Positions 55,649-63,087 of a stretch of 63,323 nucleotides of DNA are shown in pieces. A program made the position numbers and the translations under genes. The notes under the pieces were generated by a model. It was not told the origin of the DNA. It was given only the letters and a program-made list of their open reading frames with translations, and did no database searches. Source of the DNA: a virus (Duplodnaviria > Heunggongvirae > Uroviricota > Caudoviricetes); IMG/VR virus record IMGVR_UViG_3300003973_000001, positions 64,001 to 127,323 of that record. One strand, 5' to 3'. How positions within the stretch are numbered: the first letter of the stretch is position 1; every line of letters begins with the position of its first letter.

Positions 55649-55770
55649 ACAAAAATATTGCACAAAATTGTTTACAAGATGTATGTATGGATGGTATAAT
55701 TGATTTTGTAGTGATGCAGAGGTGTCGCTTTCAATTATACCGTTAAACAAAAGTATTGCAGAGGTGTAAA

Positions 55771-56172
55771 ATGATAACAATAGCTTATGCGTCATTAACA
55801 AATAACGTTAAGAGTTTCGTAGAAAGACTGCAGGAAGAGCTACCAGAAGTAAAGGTAGTTAAGATTGACAAGGATACAGTTATCAATGAGAAGTTTGTTC
55901 TTATTACATATACAACTGGATTTGGTCAAGTCCCTAAAGAAGTCGTATCTATGCTCAAAAAGAATAGAGAGAACATCGTTGCTGTAGCAGGTAGTGGCAA
56001 TCGGAACTGGGGTTCAGATAACTTCTGCAGGGCAACTGATATTATATCACAGCAGTACAACGTTCCATTGCTTCATAAGTTTGAAGTAAGAGGGCTTAAG
56101 AGCGATGTGAATATTGTAGCAACAGAGATTAAGAAAGGAATGAAGCAAGATTGGCAAAATATATCGAATTAA
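55771..56172 (+). CDS. nrdI: Class Ib RNR flavodoxin NrdI
   Basis: YASLTNNVKSFV, YTTGFG, GSGNRNWG. Confidence 0.95.
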   Translation: MITIAYASLTNNVKSFVERLQEELPEVKVVKIDKDTVINEKFVLITYTTGFGQVPKEVVSMLKKNRENIVAVAGSGNRNWGSDNFCRATDIISQQYNVPLLHKFEVRGLKSDVNIVATEIKKGMKQDWQNISN

Positions 56173-58262
56173 ATAATGAGGTCAAAATTCCAGATGAGAA
56201 TGGTAGACTTCAGTATCACAAAGACAAAGAGGCAGTTCACTCATACTTCCTAGACCATGTAAATGAAAAGATGCGTTACTTCCACGATAGAGAAGAACAA
56301 CTTGATTACATGTTTAAAAATGACTACTATGATAAGGCTATTTTCGACCAGTATTCATCAGCAGAGGTTAATGAAATCTTCAGCATGATTTATGGAGAGA
56401 AATTCCGATTCCAGTCATTTATGAGTGCTTATAAATTCTATAACAACTATGCTTTAAAAGACAATAAGGGCATTAAGTATCTAGAGCGATACGAAGACCG
56501 ATTGGCGGTAGTAGCATTATTCTTAGCAAGAGGTAACTTTGAAAAAGCACAAGAGTTTGCTGAAGTACTTGTTAAACAAGGGTATCAACCTGCTACACCA
56601 ACATTCTTAAATGCAGGACGCTCAAGAGCAGGGGAATTAGTATCATGTTTCCTAATCGAAGTTCCAGATAGCACAGAAGGTATTATGTATGCAACTGAAG
56701 CATCTGCTCAACTTAGTCGTATGGGTGGCGGAGTAGCACTTAACCTATCTAAACTGCGCGGTGCAGGAGATTCAATTAAGGATATCGAAGACGTATCTAC
56801 TTCAATCGTTGGTATTGCTAAGATTCTAGAAGGTGTATTCAATAAGTTTAATCAGCTTGGACAGCGACAAGGTAGCGGTGCTGTGTACTTAAACGTATTC
56901 CATAGTGACGTTATGGACTTACTAGATACAAAGAAAATCAATGTCGATGACAATATTCGTCTTAAAACGTTGTCTGTAGGATTAATCATGCCAGATAAGT
57001 TCTATGAATTAGCAGAGAAGAATGAGCCATACTTTACGTTCTATCCTTACAGCGTGTTTAAGGAATATGGCATTCACTTAGACGACATGGATATGAGTGT
57101 TATGTACGATGTGCTATTAAACAATCCTAACGTTCGTAAAAAGCAGATGATGAATCCTCGTAAGTTCTTAACAGAGATTGCTAAGACTCAAATTGAGAGT
57201 GGCTATCCATACCTTATGAACCGAGACAACGTTAAGAAAGCTCACTTGCTGAATGATATTGGCGAAGTAAAAATGTCAAATTTATGCGTAGAAATCCTTC
57301 AACTTCAGCTTCCAAGTGATATTCAAAGCTACAAAGGTGTAGATACATTTGGTAGAGATATATCTTGCAACTTAGGCTCATTAAACATTGTAAGTGTTAT
57401 GGAATCTGGTATCTTTGCAAAAACTGTACGAGCATCAATGGATATGCTTAACGCGGTAGCGGATATGACTTCTATTAATGAAGTTCCTACTGTTAAAGAA
57501 GCTAATGACGACTTCCATTCTGTTGGATTGGGTGCAATGAACCTACATGGTTACCTTGCTAAGAACTCTATCTCATATGAATCTGAAGAGGCGAAAGATT
57601 TTGCAAATACATTCTTTATGATGGTTCGATTCTATGCCTTACAGCGCTCTATGGAGATTGCTAGAGAGAAAGGTACTGAAAAGAAGAGTAAGCCATTTAA
57701 AGGATTCGAAAAGTCGGATTACGCAAAAGGTACTGCATTAACAAAGTATATCAAGAATAGTTATGCTCCTAAAACAGCTAAAGTAGCTCAGTTATTTGAA
57801 GGAATCTATATTCCAAATCAAACTGACTGGAGCAACCTAAATCATGACATTATGACTCATGGTATCTATAATGCTTATATTATGGCAATCGCTCCAACTG
57901 GCTCAATTTCATACGTACACAACGCTACTCCATCGGTCATGCCGATTGTAGAGAAGATTGAGACAAGAACATATGGAGATTCAACAACGCATTATCCAAT
58001 GCCATATCTATCTCCTAAGACATTCTGGTTCTACAAATCAGCTTATGACATGGATATGTTCAAGGTAATCGACCTTATTGCAACGATTCAAGAACACGTT
58101 GACCAAGGTATTTCATTCACATTATTCGTAGATGGAGATGAGATTACTACTGGTAAACTCGCTAGAAATTACATTTACGCTCATAAGAAGGGTATTAAAA
58201 CACTGTACTACACTCGTACTAAGAAGTCTTCAAATGAAGAATGCTTATCTTGCGTAGTCTGA
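56151..58262 (+). CDS. nrdE: Class Ib ribonucleotide reductase alpha subunit
   Basis: PATPTFLN, SCFL, SNLCVE, APTGSIS, TLYY, C-terminal CxxC. Confidence 0.97.
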   Translation: MAKYIELNNEVKIPDENGRLQYHKDKEAVHSYFLDHVNEKMRYFHDREEQLDYMFKNDYYDKAIFDQYSSAEVNEIFSMIYGEKFRFQSFMSAYKFYNNYALKDNKGIKYLERYEDRLAVVALFLARGNFEKAQEFAEVLVKQGYQPATPTFLNAGRSRAGELVSCFLIEVPDSTEGIMYATEASAQLSRMGGGVALNLSKLRGAGDSIKDIEDVSTSIVGIAKILEGVFNKFNQLGQRQGSGAVYLNVFHSDVMDLLDTKKINVDDNIRLKTLSVGLIMPDKFYELAEKNEPYFTFYPYSVFKEYGIHLDDMDMSVMYDVLLNNPNVRKKQMMNPRKFLTEIAKTQIESGYPYLMNRDNVKKAHLLNDIGEVKMSNLCVEILQLQLPSDIQSYKGVDTFGRDISCNLGSLNIVSVMESGIFAKTVRASMDMLNAVADMTSINEVPTVKEANDDFHSVGLGAMNLHGYLAKNSISYESEEAKDFANTFFMMVRFYALQRSMEIAREKGTEKKSKPFKGFEKSDYAKGTALTKYIKNSYAPKTAKVAQLFEGIYIPNQTDWSNLNHDIMTHGIYNAYIMAIAPTGSISYVHNATPSVMPIVEKIETRTYGDSTTHYPMPYLSPKTFWFYKSAYDMDMFKVIDLIATIQEHVDQGISFTLFVDGDEITTGKLARNYIYAHKKGIKTLYYTRTKKSSNEECLSCVV

Positions 58263-58325
58263 TAAAAGAGGGGATTACTTTTAATCCCCTTAAACTAAAG
58301 TATTGCAGAGGGGTAATTAATAAAC

Positions 58326-59297
58326 ATGACAAAACGAATTCATAAGGCAGTAAATTGGAATAAGAAAACAGATGACTTTACATTGATGTTCTGGAAGCAG
58401 AATATTGCTCAAATGTGGACGGACGAAGAGTTCTCTCCTGCAAAGGATGAATCAGATTGGGCGAAGCTATCTCCACAGCAACAGGATGTTTACAAGAAAG
58501 TATTGGCAGGGTTAACTCTATTAGATACAAAGCAATCTGAAGTAGGTATGCCATGTATCAAGCGACATATTGAAGATTCACAGCGTAAAGGTGTTCTATC
58601 ATTTATGGAGTTTATGGAAGCGATGCATGCAAAATCGTATTCTACTATCTTTACAACATTGCTACCAGACCACGAGATTTCCGATATCTTAGAAGAGTTT
58701 GTAGAGAGTAACCAATACCTGCAATACAAAGCAGAACATATCTCTCATTACTATGAAAATATCACATCTAAGAAGTCTCTATATCTAGCTATGGTGGCAT
58801 CAGTATTCCTAGAAAGCTTCTTATTCTATAGTGGATTCTTCTATCCATTATATCTAGCAGGACAAGGACGTATGGTGGCTTCTGGGGAGATTATCAATCT
58901 TATTTTACGTGATGAGTCAATTCATGGGGTTTATATCTCAATGTTAGCGCAAGAGTTGTATCAAGAACTGTCTCCACAAGAGCAAGAGGAAGTAGATTAT
59001 GAGACTAAAGCATTGCTAGAAGAATTAATGGAGAATGAACTGAAGTATACAGAAGAGATTTACGCTCCAATTAACCTTGACCATGATGTGAAGAACTTCC
59101 TTTACTACAATGCGAACAAAGCAATGATGAACTTAGGAAAAGAGCCTCAGTATGAAGAGAAGAAAATCAACCCAATCGTAATGAACGGATTAAGCACAGA
59201 AGGTAAGAACCATGACTTCTTCTCAGTAAAAGGTAACAGCTATGTTAAGGCTGTACATGAAGATTTAACAGACGCAGATTTCGTATTCGCTATCTAG
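58326..59297 (+). CDS. nrdF: Class Ib ribonucleotide reductase beta subunit
   Basis: EAMHAKSY, ESFLFYSGF, RDESIHG, NHDFFS. Confidence 0.97.
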   Translation: MTKRIHKAVNWNKKTDDFTLMFWKQNIAQMWTDEEFSPAKDESDWAKLSPQQQDVYKKVLAGLTLLDTKQSEVGMPCIKRHIEDSQRKGVLSFMEFMEAMHAKSYSTIFTTLLPDHEISDILEEFVESNQYLQYKAEHISHYYENITSKKSLYLAMVASVFLESFLFYSGFFYPLYLAGQGRMVASGEIINLILRDESIHGVYISMLAQELYQELSPQEQEEVDYETKALLEELMENELKYTEEIYAPINLDHDVKNFLYYNANKAMMNLGKEPQYEEKKINPIVMNGLSTEGKNHDFFSVKGNSYVKAVHEDLTDADFVFAI

Positions 59298-59314
59298 AGG
59301 TATGGAGGTATGAG

Positions 59315-59530
59315 ATGAACAAGAAATTATTGATTCATATAAGAAATGAATTCTTTAAAGAATTAGGAGCGATGCGTTGGAAGAGAGCTTTATTTTGCTC
59401 CTTCTGTATTGCTTGCATATGGAGCTTCGCAGATTTCTTAAGTGGAAGCTTGTCACCTAATCTATGGCACGATTTACTATGCCTCATACTTGGAATAGTA
59501 GTTGAAAGACTGCTTCCTTGGGGCAAATAA
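59315..59530 (+). CDS. Small membrane protein
   Basis: Two hydrophobic helices. Confidence 0.55.
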   Translation: MNKKLLIHIRNEFFKELGAMRWKRALFCSFCIACIWSFADFLSGSLSPNLWHDLLCLILGIVVERLLPWGK

Positions 59531-59595
59531 TACGCGATTTAATATGTAATTTTTATATAACTAACAAAACAATCGAAAAGGGGATTTATCCAACT

Positions 59596-59868
59596 ATGAA
59601 ACTAATTAAATTTGAACAAGACAACTGTACACCATGCAAAATGTTAGCAAAGGCTCTTAAGGAAGACTTTGGAAAAGTAATCGAAGTAGATGAGGTTCAC
59701 AACCTTACTACAGGTAATGATGATACGTTTATGTTAGCAGGAGAATTTGGTATTGAGAAAACACCTGTATTACTATTACTTGATGACAATGGTAAGGAAA
59801 TTGACCGTCATAAAGGCGTAGGCATTACTGGAGTATCACGAGTATTATCTCAGCGAGGACTAATTTAA
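59596..59868 (+). CDS. Thioredoxin/NrdH-like redoxin
   Basis: CTPC; TPV cis-Pro motif; follows nrdF. Confidence 0.85.
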   Translation: MKLIKFEQDNCTPCKMLAKALKEDFGKVIEVDEVHNLTTGNDDTFMLAGEFGIEKTPVLLLLDDNGKEIDRHKGVGITGVSRVLSQRGLI

Positions 59869-60116
59869 TGAATAAGCATATCAATATCAAATTCCAAGAA
59901 GGCACAGTTCAAGAGCATGGTGTAAATGGCGCACAAATTGAGGATGTAATTGATACATTAGTAGAACGACTAGAAGGATTCCAGAAGGGTGGACATCCTT
60001 GTAGAGAGAATGCATTGGCTATTACTAAGCTAGAAGAGGCTAGAATGTGGCTAAATGAGCGCACACGTAAGCGTCAAGAGCAAGGTGTAGAAGGCAAGTA
60101 TAAGAATCACAAGTAA
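59868..60116 (+). CDS. tad1: Tad1-family signal-sponge-like protein
   Basis: IKFQ.G......G....D......RL..FQ.G...RENA.A.T..EEA.MW.N.R...R...V.G pattern. Confidence 0.65.
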   Translation: MNKHINIKFQEGTVQEHGVNGAQIEDVIDTLVERLEGFQKGGHPCRENALAITKLEEARMWLNERTRKRQEQGVEGKYKNHK

Positions 60117-60120
60117 CTTA

Positions 60121-60149
60121 ATAGGGAGATTCAGTTCTCCCTATTTTTT
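60121..60149 (+). terminator. Intrinsic terminator
   Basis: ATAGGGAGA/TCTCCCTAT plus U tract. Confidence 0.8.
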
Positions 60150-60176
60150 ATACCTATAAGAAGAGGAGAAATCGAT

Positions 60177-60578
60177 ATGAAAAAGGGATTAGAATTATTT
60201 GAGGAAGTATTTGGAGAAGAAATTACGATTGAAGAGGTTCGAGGAGAAGAGGTAGAGGGAGTTGAAATCTCGTATGAGAATGAATTCCATAATGGATGGT
60301 GGATTTATCAAGATGTAATCGTAGATTATAAGGGCAAGAAATACTCATTTGAATATAGAGAGCATTCATCAGACAATTGCTGTGACAACGACTGCTACAT
60401 TAATACGTTTATGGAGATTAAGAAGTCTTATAAGTTAGAATTAAGCGAAGATGAGTATAACTTAATTCGTTGGATGTGTGAGGGGTCTTATTATTCAGCA
60501 AAAGACGATGGAAATGAAGAAAAGATGAAGGATGTAAATAGGCTAGAAAACAAGCTAATTGAGCTATATTTAAAATAA
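60177..60578 (+). CDS. Hypothetical acidic protein
   Basis: GAGGAG RBS. Confidence 0.7.
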   Translation: MKKGLELFEEVFGEEITIEEVRGEEVEGVEISYENEFHNGWWIYQDVIVDYKGKKYSFEYREHSSDNCCDNDCYINTFMEIKKSYKLELSEDEYNLIRWMCEGSYYSAKDDGNEEKMKDVNRLENKLIELYLK

Positions 60579-60600
60579 AACAAAAGATTTGCGAAAAGTG

Positions 60601-60629
60601 TTGACCTGTCTCACTATCATGTGTATAAT
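60601..60629 (+). promoter_or_regulatory. sigmaA promoter flanked by two motif A copies
   Basis: TTGACC-17-TATAAT; motif A at 60576 and 60645. Confidence 0.8.
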
Positions 60630-60691
60630 CAAGTTATAAGTTACTTAAACAAAAGTATTGCAAAATAGATGAACTTACAGGAGGAAATATA

Positions 60692-61789
60692 ATGTCTAAA
60701 ACAGTAGATATATTAAAGGATACAGGAGTATCAGCAGATTGGAAGACGGTAATGGGTACGGAAGAAGCATTGGTGGCGAAGGAATTTGCTGATGAGAAGG
60801 TTAAGGAGTTCTCCCACAACGATTTAGATGGAGTAGGGTGCGGTGTCGTAACTTTAATGGCACATCCAACAGCAGACATCGAATATTGTGCTTATCACGA
60901 TATTAACGATAGAGTTAAAGCGTTTATTATGACTAAGGGTTACGAGATGTACGACAGAATCTTCATCACAGATATCTCAGTAAACGAAGAGGTTGCAGAA
61001 CTAATTCAAGTATACTGTCCAGACAAGGTTATCTTACTAGACCATCATGGAACTGCAAAATGGCTAAATAAGTACGATTGGGCATCAGTTCAAGAAGAAG
61101 GCGTTTACGGTATTAATAGTGGAACAAACATGATATTCGATTATCTAGTATCTCAAGGACACTTCAAAGGTGAACGATATCAAGATGCATTAACTATCTT
61201 CGTAGAGATGGTAAGACGTTATGATTCATGGGAATGGAAGAACGTATATAATGACCAAAATCCAATGCAGTTGAACAATCTATTCTTCTTAGTTGGTGTC
61301 AATAAATTTGTAAAAAGATATGTAGACCGATTCAATACACTTGATTTATTCACTGTTTGCGAAGGATATTGGATGGAAATGTTCGATGAGACAGATGTTG
61401 CAGTATTAACAATCGATAACAATAAGAAGGAAGCCTACATTAAGCGTAAAGAGAAGCAAATGATTAAGGCTAATCTGATTGGATATGATGTTGGCGTGGT
61501 ATTCGCAGAGCAATATATCAGTGAATTAGGGAACGAGCTATCTGAGAGAAATCAAGACTTAGAGTTTATTGTTATCATAGATATGGGAGCTAAGAAAGTG
61601 TCTTATCGTACAATTCATGCCCATATCAATCTAGGTACAGATGTAGCAGGATTCTATGGCGGTGGCGGTCACCCTAAAGCATCTGGAAGCATGTTTGATG
61701 AGCGAGCATTGAAATGGGTGTACAAAATCATATTCGGTCTAGGGTTTATCGGAAAATTCAAAAAGATTGTTGACAGATTTAAAAAGTAG
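60692..61789 (+). CDS. DHH/DHHA1 phosphoesterase (NrnA/NrnB-like)
   Basis: HNDLDG, ITD, LDHH, GGGGHPKASG. Confidence 0.9.
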   Translation: MSKTVDILKDTGVSADWKTVMGTEEALVAKEFADEKVKEFSHNDLDGVGCGVVTLMAHPTADIEYCAYHDINDRVKAFIMTKGYEMYDRIFITDISVNEEVAELIQVYCPDKVILLDHHGTAKWLNKYDWASVQEEGVYGINSGTNMIFDYLVSQGHFKGERYQDALTIFVEMVRRYDSWEWKNVYNDQNPMQLNNLFFLVGVNKFVKRYVDRFNTLDLFTVCEGYWMEMFDETDVAVLTIDNNKKEAYIKRKEKQMIKANLIGYDVGVVFAEQYISELGNELSERNQDLEFIVIIDMGAKKVSYRTIHAHINLGTDVAGFYGGGGHPKASGSMFDERALKWVYKIIFGLGFIGKFKKIVDRFKK

Positions 61790-62076
61790 TAGTACAATAG
61801 GAGGTGAGGTTAATAATTAATTTTTAATCTCACCTTAAGCAAAAGATTTGCAAGAGGAGGTGGAAGGAATACTAATAGAAAAGGAGATTCATTATGAAAG
61901 AAATGATTAAACAATGGGAAACAAGCGAGATTGTAGATTTCCTAAATTCATATAATAGAGTTTTAGAAGTACATAAAGAGGTATCAGAGCCTTGGAAGGC
62001 ATGGTACGAAGTAGCAAAACAAGAACTTGATAGCAGAAGCTCGTTAATGGCAATGCTATATAAATAGGAGGTCGCT

Positions 62077-62706: not shown

Positions 62707-63087
62707 ATGACAGCATCAATCGAACCAGTATTACTAGGAGAGTTTTACGGATGGGACGAAGGCAGAACTGGAGCAGATTTAATCGCACATCAATTCCAAG
62801 AGAAGGAAGAGTATATCGGAAGCCTGCAAATCTTATTAGCATCATATGAGACTGACCTCAGTGACGGAGAAGCGTTTGTACTCTTCTTGGAGGATGGAAA
62901 GATGTATGAAGTTCATGGAAGTCACTGTTCATGCTATGGGCTAGAAAGTCAATGGAATCCAGAAGAGACTACGATTGAGGAACTAGAGTTTCGATTAAAC
63001 AATGGTGGCGGTTCTGACGCTTGGAGAATTGAGTTATTACTGATGTTAGAAAAGCTGAAAGAGATTGAGGCAGGAGCAATTAACTAA
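62707..63087 (+). CDS. Conserved phage hypothetical protein
   Basis: EVHGSHCSCYGLE motif; GGAGG RBS. Confidence 0.75.
   Translation: MTASIEPVLLGEFYGWDEGRTGADLIAHQFQEKEEYIGSLQILLASYETDLSDGEAFVLFLEDGKMYEVHGSHCSCYGLESQWNPEETTIEELEFRLNNGGGSDAWRIELLLMLEKLKEIEAGAIN

Follow-up and report, generated by a model that had tools for sequence, protein, structure and literature searches.

An 82-residue protein encoded at positions 59868–60116 (+ strand) of the window, by which we mean the whole 63,323-nucleotide stretch analysed (the right half, 64001–127323, of a 127,323-bp virus record), is probably a real sponge for nucleotide immune signals and is predicted to be functional. We judge it likely that this minimal member of the Tad1 family acts in that way and is made early from the ribonucleotide-reductase (nrd) operon of a phage of the Bacillus cereus group. 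The family assignment rests on the open reading frame itself, on matches to Pfam PF24729 and to CmTad1, on an AlphaFold2 model and on Foldseek. The protein is a putative sponge of altered architecture within a family already known, and so does not represent a novel type of system.

The 82-residue protein belongs to the Tad1 family

The earlier note, made from the DNA letters, had recognised the gene by motifs of Tad1, and these are present in the ORF (IKFQEG, RLEGFQKG and RENALAITKLEEARMW). The motif towards the C-terminus (R65...R69....V74.G76) is there too, but with one spacer residue more than had been written. The resemblance to the C-terminal part of Tad1 is likewise real, but it covers ~55–60% of Tad1 and not the two-thirds that had been claimed.

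Both checks that the note had proposed, a profile search and a Foldseek comparison with Tad1, were positive. The Pfam model PF24729 (Acb2/Tad1 hairpin) scored 33.9 bits against a cut-off of 27 bits, and phrog_2428 matched with an E-value of 9e-29, limited to profile positions 55–130 of 131. A sequence search of the PDB returned CmTad1 (8kbb; E 1e-19, query residues 7–77 against chain residues 59–129) and CbTad1 (7uav; E 2e-11), and no Acb2 chain at E-values up to 10. Identity to the founding member, SBSphiJ7 Tad1, is 53% over residues 3–79 (E 2e-19). PADLOC and NCBIfam contain no model that matches the protein.

An AlphaFold2 model built with 57 homologues as input had a mean pLDDT of 87.3. 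The predicted structure consists of a strand equivalent to beta4 of Tad1 (approximately residues 5–12), a loop, two helices (residues 24–40 and 46–71) and a lid (residues 72–82) that carries His81. Foldseek aligned it to CmTad1 8kbb with a query-normalised TM-score of 0.83 and an rmsd of 1.3 Å over 74 columns, and its significant matches were Tad1 entries only. VIA, an aligner independent of Foldseek, gave Z-scores of 9.6 for CbTad1 and 8.8 for CmTad1; the score for the Acb2 protein T4 Vs.4 was 6.3, tied with unrelated helical-hairpin proteins. The protein is thus a member of the Tad1 family, with a similarity far above chance.

Measured against the Tad1 proteins used for reference (SBSphiJ7 Tad1; CmTad1, 8KBB–8KBD; CbTad1, 7UAV, 7UAW, 8SMD and 8KBE/F), all phage-encoded as is the protein here, it shares beta4, the alpha1–alpha2 hairpin and the C-terminal lid, with a core identity of 40–53%. 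It differs in its length, 82 residues rather than 122–142, and in its lid, which is 3–4 residues longer than that of Tad1 and has a conserved His81. Acb2 (PaMx33 Acb2; T4 Vs.4, PDB 7UQ2) is a hexameric sponge of ~65–95 residues with a cyclic-trinucleotide site on its three-fold axis and has the PF24729 hairpin domain in common with the window protein, but its N-terminal element is a helix where the window protein has a beta strand, and it has no R..R..GVEG lid. Beyond the shared hairpin domain, membership of Acb2 had no support from sequence, and the structural match was at the level of the helical background only.

The N-terminal sheet is absent and is not encoded elsewhere

Tad1 consists of an N-terminal antiparallel sheet, beta1–beta4, followed by two C-terminal helices (Leavitt et al.). 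Since only six residues precede beta4 in the 82-residue protein, strands beta1–beta3 and the beta2–beta3 loop are missing, a loss of about 45–65 residues relative to Tad1. The note had also described the N-terminal segment as lacking, and this holds at the DNA level: a stop codon closes the frame just upstream, and the DNA beyond it is the thioredoxin gene. An HMM of the canonical N-terminal half found nothing in the whole 127-kb phage genome (best E 6.9), and neither HMM nor blastp searches of the six-frame genome with the N-terminal halves of longer homologues gave a credible match. With the upstream frame closed and no separate N-terminal half encoded in the genome, the idea of a split gene was rejected. 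What had been called a minimal variant is therefore, on the HMM and Foldseek results, a compact Tad1 relative without the N-terminal beta-sheet.

Most ligand-site residues are retained

To map the ligand sites, we used the PDB-search alignments together with the residue lists given in the Tad1 papers. In Tad1, a pocket at each end of a dimer holds gcADPR or cyclic dinucleotides, and a second pocket on the three-fold axis of the hexamer holds cyclic trinucleotides. The contacts of CbTad1 with gcADPR and cyclic dinucleotides are H29, G55, R57, R78, F82, F87, N92, R109, R113, G120 and N122. Seven of these 11 are identical in the alignment: G55 (G12 here), R78 (R34), F82 (F38), N92 (N48), R109 (R65), R113 (R69) and G120 (G76). 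Among the remainder, R57 is replaced by V14, as in SBSphiJ7 Tad1, which also has V; F87 and N122 become H43 and Y78; and H29 is gone along with the sheet. The predicted pocket at each dimer end would hence be formed by F38, N48, R34, R65, R69 and G12, with G76 in the lid. The beta2–beta3 loop, which carries H29, is one of four loops that line this pocket in Tad1; with that wall missing and a longer lid bearing His81, the dimer pocket has probably been remodelled. Binding of gcADPR is, on this comparison, uncertain.

The cyclic-trinucleotide pocket and hexamer interface of CmTad1 involve R88, T95, K96, Q98/E99, M102 and W103. Identical residues are found for C87 (C45 here), R88 (R46), A91 (A49), T95 (T53), K96 (K54), E99 (E57), M102 (M60) and W103 (W61), whilst M92 is changed to L50, Q98 to E56 and K106, a hexamer contact of CmTad1, to E64. 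A pocket made up of R46, T53, C45, A49 and L50 is predicted on the axis, and the intact residues favour cyclic-trinucleotide binding.

Short forms recur and keep the dimer pocket

The compact architecture recurs. A word-indexed search returned 227 relatives, and 49 of the best 120 have 80–89 residues, many of them from Bacillus cereus, B. thuringiensis, B. toyonensis and B. wiedmannii. When 1.84 billion representatives were scanned in full with HMMER, 3,613 clusters matched with E-values up to 1e-3; they have lengths of 81–303 residues and carry the Tad1 core nearly always at the C-terminus. For detailed comparison we used 267 sequences, i.e. the window protein and 266 collected homologues, and defined as minimal any form with at most 12 residues ahead of the IKFQ strand. 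There are 58 such forms in the set (80–87 residues), and they include proteins of the cultured phages PBC5 and vB_BceS-M2; their genomic contexts differ.

Within the 58 minimal homologues, G12, N48, R65, R69 and G76 are invariant, W61 is found in 57, R34 and F38 in 55, and R46, T53 and K54 in 48–50. The last group is lost in a subset that includes PBC5. PBC5 gp093 and its vB_BceS-M2 homologue are hypothetical proteins from B. cereus phages, with 82 residues, the same minimal architecture and tail, and 72% identity to the window protein; PBC5 has an altered trinucleotide site (R46K, T53H, K54H and E57Q) and intact dimer-pocket residues. Loss of the former without loss of the latter points to the dimer pocket as the feature on which selection acts universally.

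A tree of the core (70 columns, 267 rows) gave 18 changes between minimal and extended forms at a resolution too poor for events to be counted, and suggests that the N-terminal part has been gained or lost repeatedly. Several close relatives (core identity 64–82%; P0012, P0020, P0046, P0088, P0121-P0125, P0027 and P0025) carry unrelated additions: an SH3-like N-terminal domain of ~75 residues, a Cys-rich zinc-ribbon-like N-terminus (P0027) or, in P0025, a 48-residue C-terminal extension. As judged from these sequences, the Tad1 core evidently behaves as a module to which other segments can be fused.

A tail histidine marks a subfamily that may bind other signals

The window protein ends in GVEG followed by four residues and a histidine (GVEGxxxxH). 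Of the 267 sequences, 172 have this extended tail, and in 171 of these the HMM that defines the canonical N-terminal sheet finds none; conversely, 32 of the 33 proteins with the sheet have the short tail. His81 is kept in 51/58 minimal and 119/121 extended forms. The N-termini of the tail-His proteins are either lacking altogether or consist of an unrelated MDGSPA-type segment, SH3-like domain or zinc-ribbon-like segment. Because the correlation of tail and sheet may stem from one ancient split, we use it to describe two subfamilies and draw no statistical case for compensation from it.

Experimental data come from Hadary et al. (bioRxiv 10.1101/2025.08.24.671296), who listed 1,587 non-redundant Tad1 homologues, with forms of 76–84 residues among them, and assayed 20 of 98–176 residues, none of them minimal. 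Only one of the assayed proteins, Tad1_56, belongs to the tail-His group. It is encoded on IMG/VR contig 3300031952_000152 (L060 in our set), comes from an environmental virus rather than a Bacillus phage, and is the nearest relative of the window protein with experimental data (57% identity over residues 7–81). Like the window protein it has the GVEGxxxxH tail and no canonical N-terminal sheet; unlike it, it has 107 residues and a 29-residue N-terminal extension with the MDGSPA motif. Tad1_56 gave no culture collapse with type I Thoeris (Table S2 of that study), and its inhibition of the E. albertii 3′3′-cGAMP CBASS was validated (Hadary et al.).

These data open a reading, possible although not the one we prefer, in which the sponge has changed target: gcADPR binding would have been lost, and the protein would bind only CBASS cyclic di- and trinucleotides or an as yet undescribed immune signal. 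This would refine the proposal of a functional sponge rather than contradict it, and the note had raised a shifted ligand specificity as a possibility. That Tad1_56 keeps the F, the N and both R residues and nonetheless leaves type I Thoeris uninhibited speaks for a shift, as do the missing beta2–beta3 wall of the dimer pocket, the near-exclusion between tail and sheet (171:1 against 32:1) and the retention of His81 in short and long forms alike. However, the argument draws on one assayed relative, which bears an N-terminal extension missing here; its negative result with Thoeris was obtained in a heterologous host and could be explained by expression; and the correlation, if it goes back to a single evolutionary split, is statistically light. 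Moreover, type I Thoeris is inhibited by Tad1_46 and Tad1_62, from which the canonical sheet motif is likewise missing (Hadary et al.), so that the sheet is not strictly needed for this activity. The model type I Thoeris system of the Tad1 papers itself originates from B. cereus, the host group concerned here.

The gene closes an nrd operon

The earlier note had placed the gene at the end of the nrd operon, and the surrounding features, all on the + strand, bear this out. Upstream lie nrdI (55756–56172), nrdE (56151–58262), nrdF (58326–59297), a 71-residue hydrophobic ORF (59315–59530) and a thioredoxin gene with a CTPC motif (59518 or 59593 to 59868). The TTG start listed for the thioredoxin (59518) overlaps the 71-residue ORF; since the ATG at 59593 opens the conserved MKLIKFEQDNCTPC, the real start is probably 59593. 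A promoter-like site (55671–55700; TTTACA-18-TATAAT with TG, 11/12, by consensus match only) precedes nrdI and is likely the start of the operon. The sponge gene has an RBS, GAGGA, 8 nt before its ATG, and its start codon overlaps the thioredoxin stop in the sequence TAATG (59850–59870 in all), an arrangement that, as read from the DNA, couples its translation to that of thioredoxin. Directly 3′, an intrinsic terminator (60120–60155; 10-bp stem, 6-nt loop and T-run) begins 4 nt past the stop codon. With the nrd genes, the thioredoxin gene and the promoter-like site upstream, the sponge gene is the final cistron of what appears to be an early nucleotide-metabolism operon.

This position is not general. 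Among 83 related loci the nrd context is common to only the sister phage L005 (IMGVR_UViG_2529292751_000001), so that the gene behaves as a mobile cassette, and a general linkage to nrd or thioredoxin was rejected. PBC5 gp093, for instance, is at the right end of a 56-kb siphophage, unlike the nrd setting here. The identical protein and close relatives are present in assemblies of the B. cereus group. A megablast of the region gave only short nrdF matches against phages and none against plasmids, and a single-protein scan of genome contigs gave two distant matches only. We also looked for Tad2 (PF11195) in the phage genome, where it is absent.

The operon position could be taken to mean that the Tad1 fold serves a non-immune role, either as a nucleotide-binding accessory of the reductase and thioredoxin or as a virion component. 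Coupling to thioredoxin would fit the former, as would the PBC5 homologue three genes past a glutaredoxin-like gene. For the latter, some homologues from Bacillus myophages carry a structural annotation, and gp184 of Pseudomonas phage phiKZ (PDB 8y6v chain I, 230 residues) has a Tad1-like C-terminal domain (residues 156–228), which matches the window protein at E 2.4e-9. The phiKZ capsid paper describes gp184 as an inner-capsid vertex protein and models only its beta-rich part; a Tad1-like domain in it would imply that virions contain a sponge domain. We nevertheless regard a non-immune role as very unlikely, given that the nrd context is confined to L005, that the gene is in the early replication arm away from the structural genes, and that the most constrained residues are exactly the ligand contacts of Tad1.

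The gene is under purifying selection

Compared with L005, the sponge gene has a dN/dS of 0.21, and nrdE, nrdF and the thioredoxin gene have values of 0.01–0.04. In the comparison with PBC5, synonymous sites are saturated and protein identity is still 72%. The sponge is thus under purifying selection, yet evolves faster than its neighbours. A functionless, decaying remnant of a full-length tad1 that has lost its 5′ half would account for a match confined to the C-terminal part of Tad1 and for a dN/dS 5–20 times that of the neighbouring nrd genes, but this is the least likely explanation of all and the pseudogene idea was rejected on residue conservation and dN/dS: the 80–87-residue architecture recurs in varied contexts, cultured phages included, the ligand residues are invariant among minimal forms, the start codon, RBS and terminator are proper, and the protein has held its identity to PBC5 in the face of synonymous saturation.

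Across positions 55756–61800, conservation with L005 drops sharply at the sponge gene. Protein identity is 97–99% for NrdE, NrdF and thioredoxin, 92.7% for the sponge and 67–84% for the products of downstream genes. This may be either a mosaic boundary or the faster evolution of accessory genes.

Downstream neighbours

Directly after the operon terminator lies a gene for an acidic, Cys-containing protein of 133 residues (60177–60578, +), 83% identical in L005, which matches phrog_34125 (function unknown) and nothing in Pfam, NCBIfam or PADLOC. The next gene, two past the sponge, has its own promoter-like site (60601–60629) and encodes a DHH-type phosphoesterase of 365 residues (60692–61789, +; phrog_26954, 5.5e-20). 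The Pfam DHH match is weak (22 bits, under the cut-off), a GGGGH motif is present, and no close solved structure was found. GGGGH is typical of DHHA1, and DHH-family enzymes cleave short or cyclic nucleotides. By analogy, this could be a second, signal-degrading counter-defence gene. Further downstream, a 126-residue protein (62707–63087, +) matches phrog_8792 and, at 4.4e-28, phrog_21421, which bears the label integrase. A recombinase would be far longer, and a fused domain is the probable source of the label.

Proposed mechanism and implications

For the functional sponge that we favour, we infer the oligomeric state, ligands and anti-defence activity from homology with Tad1. Expressed early in infection from the ribonucleotide-reductase operon, the 82-residue protein would form dimers in which the helical hairpins pack as a four-helix bundle with a beta4–beta4 seam, and the dimers would probably assemble as a trimer of dimers. 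The assembly would sequester nucleotide immune signals of the host, so that Thoeris and/or CBASS effectors stay inactive. Going by the retained and altered residues, the range of ligands likely leans towards the cyclic oligonucleotides of CBASS.

A more speculative extension, which we hold only tentatively, concerns the GVEGxxxxH proteins as a distinct subfamily. In these the extended lid with its conserved histidine may have replaced the role of the lost beta2–beta3 loop, and a core of ~75 residues, the smallest able to work by itself, may have shifted its preference from gcADPR to the cyclic oligonucleotides of CBASS or to some signal still undescribed. The N-termini, which vary from none to MDGSPA-type, SH3-like or zinc-ribbon segments, would then be dispensable additions.

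Short forms already figure in lists of homologues that have been published, and UniRef has them as hairpin-domain proteins. The gain in knowledge is incremental, since both the mechanism and the diversity of the family, like the family itself, are well described. If the 82-residue form is active, then ~75 residues, comprising a strand, a hairpin and a lid, would suffice for a multi-site immune-signal sponge. This would define the minimal Tad1 core and provide a compact scaffold for studying how the pocket walls determine whether gcADPR or cyclic oligonucleotides are bound. A further consequence would be to mark for annotation the whole tail-His subfamily, which is common in phages of the B. 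cereus group and whose members are currently labelled hypothetical or 'hairpin domain-containing'.
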